NCBI GenBank assembly: GCA_036170245.1
Contig: JAVHOV010000006.1
Coordinates: forward strand, 1-19,393
From: an archaeon
GTDB lineage: Archaea; Iainarchaeota; Iainarchaeia; Iainarchaeales; JAAZKV01
Direction of reading: 5' to 3'
Length of the DNA stretch: 19,393 bases
Shown: piece by piece, positions 3,552 to 17,722 of the stretch
Layout: the number at the start of each line of letters is the position of its first letter
Numbering within the stretch: position 1 is the stretch's first letter
The notes under the pieces: generated by a model
What the model saw: the letters and a program-made list of their open reading frames with translations, nothing else
The model's database searches: none
Told to the model about the DNA's origin: nothing
Position numbers and translations under genes: made by a program

Positions 3552-3571
3552 AACTAAATTTGGTGTTAAAA

Positions 3572-3835
3572 ATGTACAAAATTGATTTTATAGATGAATG
3601 GGACAGACACTTTAAAAAATTTGATAAAAACATCCAGCAAATAATAATTAAAAAAATAGAAAAACAAACCGAAGGAACAAAAACAAGACACTTAAAATTA
3701 GGTATTGACTTTTATGTAGTTGAATTAGGACAATACAGAATAGCAATAAAAATTGAAGAAGAAAAAAGAATTAAAGAAATTTGGTTTGTGGGAAACCACA
3801 AGCAATATGAAAAATGGTACAAAAGCTTCTTTTGA
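3572..3835 (+). CDS. RelE/ParE-superfamily toxin-like protein
   Basis: 87 aa with RelE-type pattern MYKIDF...FKKFDKNIQQIIIKKIEK...GQYRIAIKI...IWFVGNHKQYE. ATG 3572 has GGTG upstream. Confidence 0.75.
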   Translation: MYKIDFIDEWDRHFKKFDKNIQQIIIKKIEKQTEGTKTRHLKLGIDFYVVELGQYRIAIKIEEEKRIKEIWFVGNHKQYEKWYKSFF

Positions 3836-3877
3836 AAGCTTTATATATTTTTTGTATAAAAAACATATGTGATAAAA

Positions 3878-4144
3878 ATGGATACTTTAGTCAACATAAA
3901 CGGCGTTCCCGAAACAGTATTAAATCTGCTAATGGAAAGAGGATATTTCAAAACAAAAGCTGAAGTAATACGTGCAGGAATAATTGAACTTGGAAACAAA
4001 TATGGAATGGATTTGAAAACTCCTGAGGATTTAGAGATGATGCTTGTAGCACTAAGAATAAAAAAAGAAGAGAAGGAAATGAAGAAAAAAGGAAAAAAGG
4101 TTTTAAGCTTAGAGCAAGTAAAGAAAAAATATAATTTAAAATAA
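3878..4144 (+). CDS. Ribbon-helix-helix (CopG/ParD-like) putative antitoxin
   Basis: beta-helix-helix pattern TLVNI...LNLLMERGYFKTKAEVIRAGI and a C-terminal LSLEQVKKKY segment typical of RelB-type antitoxins. Lies next to the toxin and has its own TATA-like TTTATATA at 3840-3847. Confidence 0.7.
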   Translation: MDTLVNINGVPETVLNLLMERGYFKTKAEVIRAGIIELGNKYGMDLKTPEDLEMMLVALRIKKEEKEMKKKGKKVLSLEQVKKKYNLK

Positions 4145-4152
4145 AAAAATAA

Positions 4153-5295
<1,143 letters not shown>

Positions 5296-5397
5296 TTAAA
5301 TGGGGTGAAAAGGATATTTAATTCTACTTTGAAAGAATAAAAAGCAAGAATAAAACAAAACTAAGGGATTTAAGCTTTTTCTAATAAGAATTAAGTT

Positions 5398-5663
<266 letters not shown>

Positions 5664-5811
5664 ATAAAAACAACCAAAACCAGCCATTCTTATTCAAATC
5701 GGCAAAATAAGCCATTATAATCCAAATTAGAAAGAGCTAATTTTTCGTTAAAAAACAAAAGGTTTTTATATTCAAAAAACGTTCAATTAACACCGAAAGG
5801 TGACTTAAAAA

Positions 5812-5988
5812 ATGGTTTTTGAAAAGAAAATGTCAGTAAAAGATTTAATTGAACAAATGAGAGAAGAACTAAAAAAAGAGCAGGACGAAATAGCACCAAC
5901 AAGAGCAGCTAGAACACAAAAGAAAAAACCGGCTAAAAAAGTTGCTGCTAAAAAAGCAAAAACAGTTAAGAAAAAGAAAAGAAAATGA
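5812..5988 (+). CDS. Small basic protein (58 aa) with Lys/Ala-rich histone-H1-like tail; missing from ORF track
   Basis: MVFEKKMSVKDLIEQMREELKKEQDEIAPTRAARTQKKKPAKKVAAKKAKTVKKKKRK. SD AGGTGA at 5798-5803 and TATA-like TTTTTATA at about 5763. Confidence 0.75.
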   Translation: MVFEKKMSVKDLIEQMREELKKEQDEIAPTRAARTQKKKPAKKVAAKKAKTVKKKKRK

Positions 5989-6017
5989 AAAACCTTTTTT
6001 AGATTTTTCATTTTTTT
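5982..6017. terminator. Inverted repeat between convergent genes
   Basis: AAAATGAAAAA (5982-5992) pairs with TTTTTCATTTT (6004-6014), followed by a T-run. Confidence 0.45.
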
Positions 6018-6041
6018 AAAAATGTTGTTTTTGAAAAAGAC

Positions 6042-6371
6042 TTACTCCTTTTCTTTCTTAGTCTCCTTTTTAATTTCCTTCTCAGTTTCCTTAATTAATT
6101 TAGATAAAACTTCAGAAACTACTTCAAACAACTTCCACCCTTCTGCACTAGCATAGAATTTCTTTACACCTATTGTAAGAGTACCGTGAATTTCATGCTG
6201 AACTCTTAACCCACCCTTAGCATAATCTTTCAAAGCAAGCTGCAACTTTGTGTTTGTTCCAACTTTCTTAAAAAATCTCTCAAGGGACTTCTCAAAAAAA
6301 GCTAAATCAACCTCATCAATTTTATCAAATTTCACTAATGTTACATTAGGAAAATTCTCTAGTACAACCAT
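6042..6371 (-). CDS. HPF/RaiA (S30EA)-fold protein, putative ribosome hibernation factor
   Basis: 109 aa, beta-alpha-beta-beta-beta-alpha pattern ending HEIHGTL...FYASAEGWKLFEVVSEVLSKLIKE, matching the HPF C-terminal signature. SD GGAGG at 6379-6383. Confidence 0.6.
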   Translation of the reverse strand: MVVLENFPNVTLVKFDKIDEVDLAFFEKSLERFFKKVGTNTKLQLALKDYAKGGLRVQHEIHGTLTIGVKKFYASAEGWKLFEVVSEVLSKLIKETEKEIKKETKKEKE

Positions 6372-6448
6372 ACAAAAACCTCCAAAAAATACTCTTGATA
6401 AAATAAGTACTACCTAACTCATTAAAAAAGAATTGACTCATATCCATA

Positions 6449-8209
6449 ATGATGCTTATTGACGAAAAAAATGAAAATTACCCTTTTCTTTGGGAACAAC
6501 TGGAAAAACACACCCCAAAAGAATATGAAAGAATAAAAAGAGTGTGTGAAACTCTTTTGAAAAAAGATTTGCCAAAAAGCACAATAGAAGGAATCATACT
6601 AAAAACAATACTAAAAGAAAAAGAACTATCTGCTGAAGAAAAACAAAAATTTAGTTCAGAAGCAAACACTATTGCGGAAAACATGATACAAATAGAAGAA
6701 GTAATTCAAAGAAACTATTCAAAAATTCCAAGCGAAACAATAACCTCAATTATTCTTACTCTTCCAGAAGATTTCCAACCAATAATTGCAGAAATTGAAG
6801 AGACAACTGATGCTTTATTCAATAAAGAAAAAATGAGTTATGAAAACAAATATGCTCAAAAAGCAAGCGAAATATGGCTTCCATTAGCCGTTAAAATTGG
6901 AATGAGCGACTGCGAATGGAAAATACAGGATTTTGCATTTAAAATAATTACCCCCCAAGGTTTTGACAAAATAAAAAAACTTGTAAACAAAACAAGAGAA
7001 GAAAGAGAAGCACTTATTGAAGAAGTAAGAAAAGAAATACAAAAACTTCTTGAAGGAAAAATAAACGCTACAATTGTTGGAAGACCAAAAAGCTTCAAAT
7101 CAATTTTTGATAAACTCAAAAAAACAACATTTGAAAAAATGCATGATATTTATGGGATAAGAATAATCTGTGACAAAGAAAAAGACTGCTATGAAGCACT
7201 CGGGCTTGTCCACTCAAAATATGAAATAATACAAGAAGCTTTTGATGATTATATTTCAAAACCAAAACCAGACGGATACAAAAGCATACACACTGCAGTA
7301 CGAAGAAAAAATGATGTAATTGAGGTGCAAATCAGAACCTGGGCACACCACTTAAGAATCACGGGAGAATCATACTGGACTTACAAAAAAGTTTCAAAAG
7401 ATAATATGTTTGAAAAAGAATTAAGCTGGGAAAGACAATTACTTGAATGGCAAAAAGCTACTGGAAAAGAAAGAACAAACAAAAAAGTGGTTGGAAATAA
7501 ATTATTTATTTTTACTCCAAAAAATGATGCAATTGCTCTCCCTAAAGGCGCAACGGTAATTGATTTTGCTTTTGCAGTACACACGGATGTGGGAAAAAAA
7601 GCGGAGAAAGCAAAAATTAACGGGCAATTTGCACCGCTTGAAACAAAACTAACCAACTTAGACAAAGTAGAAATTATTACTAATGAAAAACCCCAAATGA
7701 AAAAGAATTGGTTGCAAAACGCAGTAACTGAAAAAGCTAAAGGAAAAATTAAAACTTTCTTTGGAATGATTAAAAAGAAAGAAAAAAAAGAAACTAAACT
7801 TGATACAAAAAATACTAAAAAAATAAAAATGGCTGAATGCTGCCACCCCCTGCCCGGAGAAGATGTAATTGGGGTTAAAACAACAAAAAGAAAAATAATT
7901 GTACACAAAAAAGATTGTGTTAATATTTCAAAAATAAGCAAAGACAAATTAGTAAACATTGACTTTGAAAGAGAAAAAGGAGAAACAGGAGTAAGAGTTA
8001 AAGCAATTGACAGACCGGGGCTTTTAGGAGAAATCTTAGAAGAAATCAAAAATTCTCAAGCAACCCTCAAAAACACTAATTTCAAAATAAAAAAGAACGG
8101 ATATGCTGACGCAATCTTTATTTTAGAAATCAAAAGTGCTCAAAAACTTGAGAAACTAATTGAAAAAATTGCAGATATTCCTTCAGTGCAGTTAGCTGAA
8201 AGAATTTAA
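6449..8209 (+). CDS. Long RelA/SpoT homolog: degenerate HD, (p)ppGpp synthetase, TGS, ZFD, ACT/RRM
   Basis: Synthetase motifs GRPKS, DIYGIRII, DDYISKPKPDGYKSIHT, EVQIRT. TGS FTPK...LPKGATVIDFAFAVHTDVG. ZFD AECCHPLPGE...HKKDC. ACT DRPGLLGEI. No HDxxED hydrolase motif. Confidence 0.93.
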   Translation: MMLIDEKNENYPFLWEQLEKHTPKEYERIKRVCETLLKKDLPKSTIEGIILKTILKEKELSAEEKQKFSSEANTIAENMIQIEEVIQRNYSKIPSETITSIILTLPEDFQPIIAEIEETTDALFNKEKMSYENKYAQKASEIWLPLAVKIGMSDCEWKIQDFAFKIITPQGFDKIKKLVNKTREEREALIEEVRKEIQKLLEGKINATIVGRPKSFKSIFDKLKKTTFEKMHDIYGIRIICDKEKDCYEALGLVHSKYEIIQEAFDDYISKPKPDGYKSIHTAVRRKNDVIEVQIRTWAHHLRITGESYWTYKKVSKDNMFEKELSWERQLLEWQKATGKERTNKKVVGNKLFIFTPKNDAIALPKGATVIDFAFAVHTDVGKKAEKAKINGQFAPLETKLTNLDKVEIITNEKPQMKKNWLQNAVTEKAKGKIKTFFGMIKKKEKKETKLDTKNTKKIKMAECCHPLPGEDVIGVKTTKRKIIVHKKDCVNISKISKDKLVNIDFEREKGETGVRVKAIDRPGLLGEILEEIKNSQATLKNTNFKIKKNGYADAIFILEIKSAQKLEKLIEKIADIPSVQLAERI

Positions 8210-8277
8210 TTTCTTAAAAACATCTAAAACGTATTTATTTAAACCATTTTAACACAATCCTAAAAGGAAGTGATTGG

Positions 8278-9444
8278 ATGAAACCTATACTACAAATAAT
8301 TATGTTTGCTACACTCATAGCATTAATTGGAACAGCTTTTGCTGCATTCCCAGAAGTAACCCAAGTGAGTTACACACCAAGTCCTGCAATACCAGGAACA
8401 ACAATAACTTTTTTGGTACAGTTAGAAAATAAAGATTCAACAGCACAAAAAGGAGTAACTGTTAGTTTAGAAGACACATACCCTTTTACTGTAAAATCAA
8501 CCGAAACTGAATCAAACCCAAGAGTTGTTGGAAATATTGATGCTTTTGGTAAGGCTTTAATTCAATTCACTCTATATGTTGATTCAACAGCAGAAAACAA
8601 AACATATTCAATCCCTGTTATAATAAAAGTGCAAGGGGACGAAAGCGGGAAGAAAACAAACCACAACATACTTGTTAGTGGAAAAAATCCAATTGTAAAA
8701 ATAGTTTCAGTAACTGAAGAAAAATTACTTCCTGGAGAAGAAAAAGAAATTAACTTTACTTTACAAAATGTAGGGACAAGCCCAGCAAATTATGTTGTTC
8801 TTGAAATGCAAGAAGACAGAACAATTACTGCAACAGGCGCAATAGTTGAAAGAGATGTTACTTCACTAGGGGCAGCTGCAACTAATGTAGGAACAATAAA
8901 TCCGGGTGAAACAAAAATAGCCACATTAAAAGTTAGTGTAAGCAATACTGCAATAATAAAAAATTATACCCTTCCAATAATGATATCCTATAATGATCAA
9001 ACAGGAACAAGAACTTCAACTATTTCTTATGTAGGATTAAAGGTATTTGCTACAGCAGACCTTGATGCTACAATAAAGGAAAATCTGAACGGTTCAATAA
9101 CTGTAGAACTATTCAACAAAGGCTTAGGAAAAGCTGAATTTACTTTAGTAGAACTTGAAGCTACAGGGGCAACTATAGACAAACCAAAACAATTCATTGG
9201 AACTTTAGGGCCAAATGATGTAGACACTGTAAAAACAAACATAAACTACACACAAACAGATGCTACTCTAAAAGTAAAAATAAGTTACTTGGATTCTGAT
9301 GCAAAACAAAAAGTAAAAGAAATAATCCTAAACCCAAAAGGACAAATAGCAACACAAGAAGGGTCTAATTGGTTACTAATTCTTGTAGTACTAGTTGTAA
9401 TTGGGGCAGGAGTATACAACTTTGTTTTAAAGAAAAGAAAATAA
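8278..9444 (+). CDS. Secreted, membrane-anchored Ig-like (COG1361/CARDB-like, S-layer-domain) protein
   Basis: Signal peptide ending AFA, repeated PG.....F.L.N.G beta-sandwich motifs, C-terminal TM helix plus basic tail KKRK. Confidence 0.75.
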   Translation: MKPILQIIMFATLIALIGTAFAAFPEVTQVSYTPSPAIPGTTITFLVQLENKDSTAQKGVTVSLEDTYPFTVKSTETESNPRVVGNIDAFGKALIQFTLYVDSTAENKTYSIPVIIKVQGDESGKKTNHNILVSGKNPIVKIVSVTEEKLLPGEEKEINFTLQNVGTSPANYVVLEMQEDRTITATGAIVERDVTSLGAAATNVGTINPGETKIATLKVSVSNTAIIKNYTLPIMISYNDQTGTRTSTISYVGLKVFATADLDATIKENLNGSITVELFNKGLGKAEFTLVELEATGATIDKPKQFIGTLGPNDVDTVKTNINYTQTDATLKVKISYLDSDAKQKVKEIILNPKGQIATQEGSNWLLILVVLVVIGAGVYNFVLKKRK

Positions 9445-9457
9445 TTAATGTTAAATA

Positions 9458-9493
9458 AAATGTTGTGGTTTTATACCCCAACATTTCTTTTTT
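9458..9493. terminator. Hairpin between convergent genes
   Basis: AAATGTTG-TGGT...ACC-C-CAACATTT followed by a T-tract. Confidence 0.5.
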
Positions 9494-9831
9494 TAATCCT
9501 TCAATTTTAATTTCCAGCCAGCAGAGCGCACCAATGTTTTTGAAACAGGCTTTGAAACAAAAGGGATTTTGGCAGAAAAAAATTTTCTTGCAACCATTAA
9601 TTTTCTTGCAGCACTTTTTCTTTTTCTTGAAATGACCCTGACAATCGACTTGCTGTCAGGCTCGGTTGAGTTATACTCCCCAACAAAAAGCCTTTTTGGA
9701 TTTGCCAAACGATTAACCAACTTCAAACGAGTCTTTGCACTTCTTCCCGCAAAAAAAGAATCTCCAAATTCAATACGTGCTCTTGCCATTCTATTATGAT
9801 GAAGTCTTGCCTTAGATGCAACTAGTTTCAC
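9493..9831 (-). CDS. Highly basic hypothetical protein
   Basis: 112-aa Arg/Lys-rich ORF with GTG start 14 bp downstream of the KaiC-like gene; fills the intergenic space. Confidence 0.55.
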   Translation of the reverse strand: MKLVASKARLHHNRMARARIEFGDSFFAGRSAKTRLKLVNRLANPKRLFVGEYNSTEPDSKSIVRVISRKRKSAARKLMVARKFFSAKIPFVSKPVSKTLVRSAGWKLKLKD

Positions 9832-10739: not shown

Positions 10740-11390
10740 TCAAGAAAAGCTTTTTAAGGGGGAGCTTAAGAGAGCTTTTGCACGAGCACTTTTATAAGGA
10801 TTTGAAAACCCAATTTCATCCATCCATTTATGCAAATTACCCTTACCATACAAACAAACTTTATAGGTTCTATGCTTTGATAATTTACTAAAATAAGACC
10901 TTATTTTAGTTACTCTAAAACCTTTAATTAAAAGAGTGTTTTGAACTTGTTCTGCAAGAATAATACTAGAAGTAGTTAATTCTAAAGAAGGATATTTTTC
11001 AACACCAGGCTTTTTTGAACAAAAAACACTTCCATCTGTGTCAAATAATCCTTTTAAAACAAACTTTAATAACTCCAAGTCAGACAAAATGAATTCAGGG
11101 ATTTTTGCATTTATTGCTTTTCCTGCCCCTGCAAAGAAATTAAATTCATTAATTAACCTCAAACAATACTCTTTAGAATAAACAGAAATTCTTACACCAT
11201 TAGAACGAAATTTAGAAAACACTGTTTTATTACAAACAATTTGAATAATTGAACACAAATATTCAAAATATGCTTTATCTGTAACAGGATTTCCAGTCAA
11301 TCCAAAAATATACTTTTGACTTGCTAATGAAACAAACCCATCACCAAGTAAAGCACCTAATAACTCACATTCTTCTTTAGAAATATACAT
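10740..11390 (-). CDS. Free-standing two-motif LAGLIDADG endonuclease-like protein
   Basis: Motifs LLGALLGDG and VLKGLFDTDGSV, C-terminal IGFSNPYK; no intein splicing motifs. Confidence 0.85.
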   Translation of the reverse strand: MYISKEECELLGALLGDGFVSLASQKYIFGLTGNPVTDKAYFEYLCSIIQIVCNKTVFSKFRSNGVRISVYSKEYCLRLINEFNFFAGAGKAINAKIPEFILSDLELLKFVLKGLFDTDGSVFCSKKPGVEKYPSLELTTSSIILAEQVQNTLLIKGFRVTKIRSYFSKLSKHRTYKVCLYGKGNLHKWMDEIGFSNPYKSARAKALLSSPLKSFS

Positions 11391-16771: not shown

Positions 16772-17722
16772 TTACAATTTATCAAGAGGACTAACAACTT
16801 TTTTGAGTTGATCATTTGCAACACTAGTATAAATTTGGGTGGTGTTTAGACTTGAGTGACCTAAAAGAGTTTGAATATATCTAATATTAGTTCCAGCTTC
16901 AAGTAAGTGAGTAGCATAAGAATGTCTTAAACAGTGGGGGGTAACATGTTTGTTTATCCCAGCATTAATCGCTGCTGCTCTTACAATTCTTTGAATTGTA
17001 TCAGTAGTGATTGGCTTTCCATTTTTTTTAGAAAAAACAAATTCTGATTGAATTTTCTTTTTTGCCAAATATTTTTTTATTCCATGAATCCACTCTTTTG
17101 AAAGAATAATAATTCTGTCTTTATTTCCTTTTCCTGCTCTAACTGTTGCAGTTCTCTCTTTAAAATTTAGTTCCTCAACTTTAATTTTAGTTACTTCACT
17201 TACTCTACACCCAGATCCATACATGAATTGCAGCATTAAGCGGTTTCTTCCAAAGTGTGTGCTTTCAAATAATTTTTTTATTTCGTCTCGAGTAAGAACT
17301 TTTGGCAAGGATTTAGCTTTTTTTGGGATTTTAATTTCTTCAAGAATTGCTTTCATATGATTTTTTTTAAACAAGTATTGCATTGCAGCATGAACCAAAG
17401 ACAAAGTTGCATTATTACAACCAACTTCTTTTTTATGGGCAAGGTAGGAAATCAGATCCTGTTTTACTAAAGCCGCAAGGGGTTTATTGATAAAATAAAT
17501 CATTTCGCGCGTGTAAATAAGATACATTTTGATTGTTTTAGAAGAATAGCCTTCAACAATAAGTTCTTGTTTTAATTGAGTTAAAATTGATTCAAAATTT
17601 GGGTTTAAAATAAGCTGATTAGTTTGTGCTTGAGTTAAAGGAATAATTTCTTTAGTGGAAGAAGGAAGGGGGAGAGTGGTGGCAATTTGTTGAGTAGGTT
17701 GTTCTGGTAGATTATCCTGCAT
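16772..17722 (-). CDS. Tyrosine recombinase, XerA/XerC-D-like
   Basis: Intact catalytic set: GCRVSE (R), GKGNKDR (K), HCLRHS (HxxR), LLGHS (H), TQIYT (Y). N-terminal core-binding domain GYSSKTIKMY. Confidence 0.92.
   Translation of the reverse strand: MQDNLPEQPTQQIATTLPLPSSTKEIIPLTQAQTNQLILNPNFESILTQLKQELIVEGYSSKTIKMYLIYTREMIYFINKPLAALVKQDLISYLAHKKEVGCNNATLSLVHAAMQYLFKKNHMKAILEEIKIPKKAKSLPKVLTRDEIKKLFESTHFGRNRLMLQFMYGSGCRVSEVTKIKVEELNFKERTATVRAGKGNKDRIIILSKEWIHGIKKYLAKKKIQSEFVFSKKNGKPITTDTIQRIVRAAAINAGINKHVTPHCLRHSYATHLLEAGTNIRYIQTLLGHSSLNTTQIYTSVANDQLKKVVSPLDKL

Follow-up and report, generated by a model that had tools for sequence, protein, structure and literature searches.

A long RSH of the Iainarchaeales with a degenerate hydrolase domain and an altered synthetase end, a candidate (p)ppGpp synthetase in a family that has lost the hydrolase-type paralog

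The window, by which is meant the whole stretch of 19,393 nucleotides that was analysed, comes from an archaeal genome (G000, 867 kb, 86% complete) of JAAZKV01, a family of the order Iainarchaeales, and carries a gene for a long RSH protein, P0001, together with the features collected in Table 1. The window's family is represented here by 38 genomes and the remainder of the order by a further 158. Two types of long RSH are found in the order, a synthetase type (paralog A), to which P0001 belongs, and a hydrolase type (paralog B).

Table 1. Positions in the window of the RSH gene, its parts and two neighbouring features.
Feature	Position	Strand	Basis
Long RSH P0001, synthetase-type paralog A (586 aa)	6449..8209	+	Pfam, long-RSH structural relatives, AlphaFold model
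Pseudo-HD domain, aa 12-170, with K52/T53 in place of the His-Asp pair	6482..6958	+	alignment to SpoT
Synthetase domain, aa 183-315: R212, K214, K222, D233, R238, AFDD 264-267, Y277, H281, E292, Q294, R296	6995..7393	+
Remodelled synthetase end, aa 301-313, shorter by two residues and with Tyr309 (7373-7375) in place of RelA His354	7349..7387	+
TGS domain with His378 (7580-7582)	7493..7687	+	Pfam TGS, alignment
AH-region remnant: a single helix plus a short linker rich in lysine	7688..7819	+	residues 442-456 pLDDT under 50
Zinc finger C464, C465, H486, C490 and basic TTKRK segment	7820..7963	+	alignment to RelA
ACT/RRM domain	7964..8206	+	Pfam ACT_4, structural match
HPF/RaiA-like ribosome hibernation factor, divergent from the RSH with 77 bases between them	6042..6371	-	Pfam of relatives, model, Foldseek
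Archaeal SRP RNA	5394-5667	+	

The conserved neighbours of the RSH locus are HPF, Tgt and a KaiC-like gene, and no conserved antitoxin-like neighbour was found among the loci of the window's family. Profile PF02482 matched 15 of 24 aligned HPF-like members but not the window's protein alone; the model of the latter (pLDDT 90.8) shows the beta-alpha-beta-beta-beta-alpha fold of HPF, and its top Foldseek matches are all HPF/pY proteins (E 2.5e-5). This gene is divergent from the RSH in 31/35 loci of the window's family and lies near paralog A in 7/21 other loci, and an HPF-like gene is present in 144 of the order's 196 genomes. Elsewhere the HPF-like domain forms one protein with CBS domains, the arrangement of HibA. 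The pairing of RSH and HPF may represent inherited gene order: one 92% complete genome of the family (G033, locus L172), in which the RSH is cleanly gone between HPF and the downstream gene, kept HPF. Stand-alone archaeal HPF forms are reported from 8% of archaea, the majority of them DPANN or Nitrososphaerales, in the accessible portion of PMC13324472, in whose main text neither ppGpp nor Iainarchaeota occurs; the HPF/RaiA-like and HibA proteins described there have the fold of the RSH gene's neighbour in the window, a putative silencer of ribosomes.

Other features of the window were recorded in passing. A bacterial-type queuine tRNA-guanine transglycosylase (4153-5292, minus strand; TIGR00430 score 389 against a cut-off of 307) accompanies the locus across the family, and a lysine-rich open reading frame of 58 aa (5812-5988, plus strand) without a Pfam match shows strong conservation of its first 25-29 residues in some 30 loci of the family. 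A ParE-like toxin scoring at the cut-off (3560-3835, plus) is followed by a small unmatched frame, possibly an antitoxin (3869-4144, plus). Further along are a LAGLIDADG-like frame adjoining tRNA-Phe (10740-11390, minus) and a tyrosine integrase (16772-17722, minus), and a fragment at the contig end (3-587, plus) looks by eye like part of a transposase.

P0001 is a real gene, native to the chromosome of a member of the Iainarchaeota (DPANN). Its setting is archaeal, as the sequence-only reading had supposed, with RadA, Trm56 and TFE, all above their NCBIfam cut-offs, and the SRP RNA flanking it. Its nearest homologues are labelled Ca. Iainarchaeum or Diapherotrites by their sources, orthologues are present in 35/38 genomes of the window's family, gene order around the RSH is kept in about 30 loci of that family, and positions 5300-9500 are covered by single contigs, with no difference, in two sequencing runs that are possibly the source. 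A bacterial contaminant or a chimeric contig, the latter a danger recognised from the start, has nothing in its favour except the bacterial ancestry of the RSH family; both are refuted by the synteny conserved across the window's family, and we regard either artefact as extremely improbable. The premise that long RSHs are rare in archaea fails for this phylum, in which PF04607 was matched in 162/215 genomes.

Pfam matches in P0001 cover RelA_SpoT (residues 211-314, E 6e-30), TGS (353-411) and ACT_4 (513-585), and its closest solved relatives are long RSHs. The AlphaFold model (pLDDT 87.7, built from 127 sequences) has as its best structural match 6S2U, the Rel of T. thermophilus with AMP and ppGpp bound (Z 26.3, rmsd 2.7 over 291 residues). 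Pseudo-HD, synthetase, TGS, zinc finger and ACT domains thus follow one another in a single chain, the domain set of a long RSH; the toxSAS proteins (FaRel, FaRel2, CapRel, Tas1), in contrast, are small synthetases that come with an antitoxin and have neither TGS nor ACT. P0001 is the sole RSH detected in its genome at 86% completeness.

The loss of the hydrolase HD motif, claimed from the sequence alone, is confirmed. K52 and T53 occupy the place of H72 and D73 of E. coli SpoT, none of the nine scored SpoT hydrolase residues is kept, and HD_4 reaches 14.9 bits against a cut-off of 27.2. Across 106 family sequences, 35 of them from genomes of the family and the other 71 being proteins of the family type, the HD site is kept in none, and none has the motifs RxSGxPY-H, HDxxED and KxxDxxxN intact. 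Invariant columns number 4/158 in the pseudo-HD domain, none of them catalytic, compared with 25/133 in the synthetase domain of the same sequences. The synthetase domain is under purifying selection, with pN/pS of 0.07-0.28 in six pairs (uncorrected).

Less straightforward is the statement that the synthetase motifs are intact. It stands for the nine core residues R212, K214, K222, D233, R238, Y277, E292, Q294 and R296, whose roles are described in the available parts of PMC7983052 and bioRxiv 670703 and which are invariant in 106/106 family sequences. It does not stand for the end of the domain, where the AExGxAAHW motif has become HLRITGESYW in P0001 and all 106 share a two-residue deletion and Tyr at the position of E. 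coli RelA His354, nor for the G-loop, where the Asn position is Asp275 in P0001. Outside the window's family, His occupies the His354 position in 249/252 sequences scored: 60/62 paralog A proteins of other families (the remaining two have Asp), 111/112 bacterial-type proteins (the remaining one has Tyr) and 78/78 further proteins read from 80 loci. Asp was seen at this site in L052 and L134, from one other family without paralog B, and Tyr in P0199, an Alicyclobacillus Rel. P0001 has no histidine at either candidate site, Y309 by sequence or S308 by the RelP register, and Y309, W310 and Y312 are themselves invariant in 106/106. The G-loop Asn is kept in 8/35 and the Lys in 24/35 members of the window's family, as against 55/62 and 61/62 in other paralog A proteins and 112/112 in bacterial-type sequences, so that this relaxation is seen only in the window's family. 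In RelSeq the two residues contact the guanosine ring (accessible text of PMC7983052), a role that is mapped onto P0001 by register.

The counterpart of RelA His354 in RelP, His190, binds the ATP ribose (PMC5794853, available part), and H354Y is described, in the portion of PMC4154780 that could be consulted and there by citation of another paper, as reducing RelA synthesis; no report of an M. tuberculosis equivalent of H354Y was found in the literature searched. H354Y was tested in a sequence context different from that of P0001. In the P0001 model, residues 298-312 form an unbroken helix (block pLDDT 78 and 68) that superposes on RelP up to residue 311, and the deletion produces an E-to-Y spacing of 20. 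Because the helix is continuous and its end-point register fits RelP, the His site may, according to the model, have been rebuilt rather than weakened.

The determinants from which a ribosome-associated enzyme had been proposed all survive comparison with RelA. His378, in VHTDVG, aligns with the TGS histidine H432, C464, C465, H486 and C490 align with the CCHC zinc finger, and the ACT domain is present; in the window's family zinc finger, TGS and ACT are conserved as strongly as the synthetase or more so. Together with the dead HD site and the invariant core, these features suggest a synthetase-only enzyme of ribosome-associated type, as first described. The TGS-to-zinc-finger linker is, as had been noticed, much shortened: the distance from the TGS His to the CC pair is 86 residues, whereas RelA has 180, SpoT has 159 and a set of 104 bacterial-type sequences spans 159-193. 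The short linker was rejected as a peculiarity of P0001, since relatives with an intact HD site, one of them labelled Woesearchaeota, have 95-103 residues. AFDD, likened at first to the acidic ExDD of RelA, aligns with EFDD and both Asp are kept, but the Glu is Ala in 30/35 of the family, and E-x-D also occurs in the HD-intact relatives P0113, P0152, P0198, P0216 and P0224, for which reason AFDD was rejected as proof of monofunctionality.

In four trees, paralog A, paralog B and the HD-intact short-linker relatives (one carrying the label Woesearchaeota and six whose taxonomy was not shown) fall on one side of a branch that separates them from up to 101 bacterial-type rows, with support of 100/99 in the careful tree. 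Paralog A, paralog B and the window's family are each supported groups, the last nested inside A. The subfamily models and phylogeny suggested as a check place P0001 inside paralog A and not as an orthologue of RelA; it falls among the short-linker proteins, away from E. coli RelA, and scores 269 against a cut-off of 728 for the RelA model NF008124 and 360 against 499 for the bifunctional Rel model TIGR00691. Bifunctional short-linker Rel proteins of DPANN type (L079, labelled Woesearchaeota; P0107, P0113, P0152) belong to the same clade (100/99) and have AH regions of 95-103 residues, but keep both active sites and the His. A and B were joined as sisters with support of 50/63 in the careful tree and not with the mixture model, which does not establish a duplication inside the order. 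The top Atlas cluster for the RSH (606 aa) is 68% bacterial among members with a record. No bacterial donor is named because the bacterial sampling is narrow, being composed of relatives returned by other searches, with candidate-phyla and spirochaete Rel not knowingly included.

A separate hydrolase had been predicted for such an enzyme. The order does have a candidate for it, in the form of another long RSH and not of a small alarmone hydrolase, and this candidate has been lost from the window's family. This paralog B, found in many genomes outside the window's family (among the 61 genomes first searched), is present in about 75/158 non-family genomes of 16 families, as counted by a best HD_4 E of at most 3e-31 with exclusion of G168, whose match is an A copy. 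Its HD motifs are all intact, its synthetase Arg, Glu and Gln are lost and its zinc finger is absent. Across 40 HD-intact rows, consisting of the 39 B proteins read and L118, an unrelated HD fusion, the HD site is kept in 40/40, the synthetase core in 0/40 (Glu lost in 40/40) and the TGS His in only 3/40. Within the order, dead domains thus decay in both types, the HD site being kept in 0/106 of the family's A proteins, whose synthetase core is in contrast invariant; in other families 0/62 paralog A proteins pass a seven-residue HD test, a few, such as L120, keeping part of the site. These data point to a complementary pair of RSH proteins, a probable (p)ppGpp maker (A) and breaker (B), in many members of the order.

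Paralog B, seen in the order at L055, at L061 and at a further 37 loci, lies beside argS, and of 13 B loci 12 have ArgRS, mostly directly upstream. A profile search found no B in the 38 genomes of the window's family, 35 having A only and three neither. In the source genome argS is assembled mid-contig with B missing after it, and the slot after argS is empty in 12/12 family argS loci read, of 33 found; upstream of argS is a membrane protein of 237 aa (G000:C9:13503-14216, minus strand), presumably akin to a queuosine-precursor transporter. Two genomes, G050 (97% complete) and G051 (99%, one contig), likewise have no paralog B and a His-intact A only, so loss of B does not require the His change; in the window's family, all of whose members show both, the two events may have come in either order.

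Several isolated forms were noted. Paralog B proteins of 478-488 aa (L090, L096, L098, L104, L105, L113) appear to stop before ACT. A small HD protein of 196 aa occurs in G016 of the window's family (L116:1926-2516), a stand-alone synthetase of 191 aa in G060 (L066:4257-4832), and the HD fusion of 413 aa in G171 (L118:1408-2649). Fast-evolving paralog A proteins characterise two other families (L065, L141-L143; L124-L128), the protein of one of them measuring about 460 aa and lacking both zinc finger and ACT, and the HPF profile found no match in these families (0/22, 0/7). Outside the window's family, paralog A (L034-L053, L120) is often near genes for a KaiC-like protein (16/21), triosephosphate isomerase (14), LysRS (8) and SerRS (7).

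Genome-wide, an HD_4 search of the source genome (86% complete) returned only P0001 itself and no small alarmone hydrolase. Four Nudix genes and two other HD genes are present, Ppx/GppA was not found, IMPDH gave a sub-threshold match only, and PurF-like and PRPP-synthetase-like genes are labelled as such from sequence. The genome encodes uL11 and, at the A-site-finger position of an Rfam alignment, a full-length 23S helix that we take to be the A-site finger. His378, zinc finger, ACT, this helix and uL11 suggest that P0001 may sense ribosomes.

Taken together, these data lead us to propose, with a probability of roughly one half, that P0001 represents the synthetase side of an archaeal division resembling that of RelA and SpoT, that its activity was damped once its partner B had been lost, and that it likely works as a ribosome-triggered (p)ppGpp synthetase. 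As is the case for RelA, zinc finger and ACT would dock at the A-site finger and His378 would read the 3' CCA end of deacylated tRNA; R212 and R238 would stack the ATP adenine, D233 and E292 hold Mg2+ and Y277 stack the acceptor guanine, and pyrophosphate would be passed to GDP or GTP to give (p)ppGpp. Loss of the ATP-ribose histidine would reduce output far enough for the cell to bear it in the absence of an RSH hydrolase, clearance would fall to a Nudix enzyme, another HD enzyme or dilution, and alarmone and HPF might jointly shut down translation. A precedent for damping comes from E. coli, in which spoT loss selects non-inactivating relA alleles. Against this proposal count the absence of most of the AH region that wraps tRNA in RelA, the clean loss of the RSH from G033, the failure to detect (p)ppGpp in two model archaea, both of which lack these RSH enzymes (PMC8646023, available part), and the fact that the partly accessible literature yielded no archaeal ribosome shown to activate an RSH.

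The same invariant core would suit a fully active RelA-like (p)ppGpp synthetase, along the lines first proposed, in which the deletion rebuilds the helix after the pattern of small synthetases; its product would then be removed by a hydrolase other than an RSH. That Y309, W310 and Y312 are invariant in every family sequence suggests selection of the new state, the continuous model helix has an end-point register matching RelP, and His-intact lineages live without paralog B as well; yet no histidine is available at Y309 or S308 where nearly all outside sequences have one, and H354Y lowers RelA activity, which makes undiminished activity rather unlikely. At the other extreme, a catalytically dead nucleotide-binding sensor of ribosomes or tRNA, or a hibernation cofactor working with HPF, would account jointly for the His change and for the loss of a hydrolase grown useless, and would suit both the conservation of the zinc finger, TGS and ACT and the frequent head-to-head HPF. 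It is distinctly unlikely given that none of the 106 family sequences departs from the catalytic base E292, the metal ligand D233, Q294 or R296, whereas B, whose synthetase did die, lost the Glu in 40/40 rows.

A changed acceptor is also conceivable, P0001 then being a pyrophosphokinase whose product is (p)ppApp or a capped 3' CCA end on uncharged tRNA, in the manner of the adenine-specific toxSAS but serving as a housekeeping dormancy switch. RSH folds are capable of such chemistry (PMC11782079, accessible part), the relaxed G-loop is on the guanine side, the ATP-donor and metal residues are invariant and the ppGpp hydrolase paralog is gone. Y277, H281 and xFDD are kept, however, the locus has no conserved antitoxin-like neighbour, the protein has the domains of a long RSH and in the tree it lies inside paralog A; no sequence rule predicting the acceptor was found in the parts of the literature at hand, and we consider this alternative distinctly unlikely. 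A bolder scenario, and a quite improbable one, would have the Iainarchaeota run a full stringent response coupled to their archaeal ribosomes and assembled, separately from that of Proteobacteria, out of two long RSHs, one of them RelA-like and the other purely a hydrolase, after which the window's family dropped the hydrolase and rebuilt the pocket for a non-guanosine acceptor ((p)ppApp or reversible capping of uncharged tRNA), giving a housekeeping dormancy switch paired with HPF.

Among known systems, E. coli RelA [hS] (PDB 5IQR, 5KPV) shares with P0001 the pseudo-HD domain and dead hydrolase site, synthetase core, TGS His, CCHC finger, ACT and acidic xFDD. It differs in tree position, in length (744 vs 586 aa) and in AH region (180 vs 86), and P0001 has Tyr and the deletion at His354 and no hydrolase partner in its genome. 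The division into putative maker and breaker by the order's A/B pair is as complete as that of RelA and SpoT[Hs] in Moraxellaceae, where the SpoT of A. baumannii (PDB 7QPR), like paralog B, combines an intact HD site with a decayed synthetase and loss of the TGS His (available text of PMC9974481). The two pairs are of separate origin by tree, B has no zinc finger whereas A. baumannii SpoT keeps one, some B forms lack ACT, and the window's family has no B.

Multidomain RSH forms are said to have been found in uncultured archaea by Rinke in 2013. A 2023 review does not mention the present archaeal lineages, and Atkinson 2011, in its accessible part, gives archaeal RSHs as small forms only. RelA/SpoT genes in 69% of Diapherotrites and 41.7% of Woesearchaeota, with a proposed bacterial origin, are already in print (PMC8407392); the available text of that work concerns the same gene family and lineage and treats presence only, without motif analysis, a paralog split or a His-to-Tyr family. 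The A/B paralog pair and the fixed His-to-Tyr change appear to be new, neither having been found in the open-access literature searched, Fig. S34 of PMC8407392 aside.

The Iainarchaeales accordingly offer testable parts for an archaeal stringent response, namely a candidate maker whose domains may sense ribosomes, a putative breaker that complements it and an HPF-like hibernation factor, and their apparent division of labour would repeat that of Moraxellaceae RelA and SpoT[Hs] by a separate route. The window's family provides a natural case in which the synthetase was kept without an RSH hydrolase and has a substitution fixed at a site already probed by mutagenesis in RelA, and it bears both on how a lone synthetase is tolerated and on the role of the histidine at position 354.
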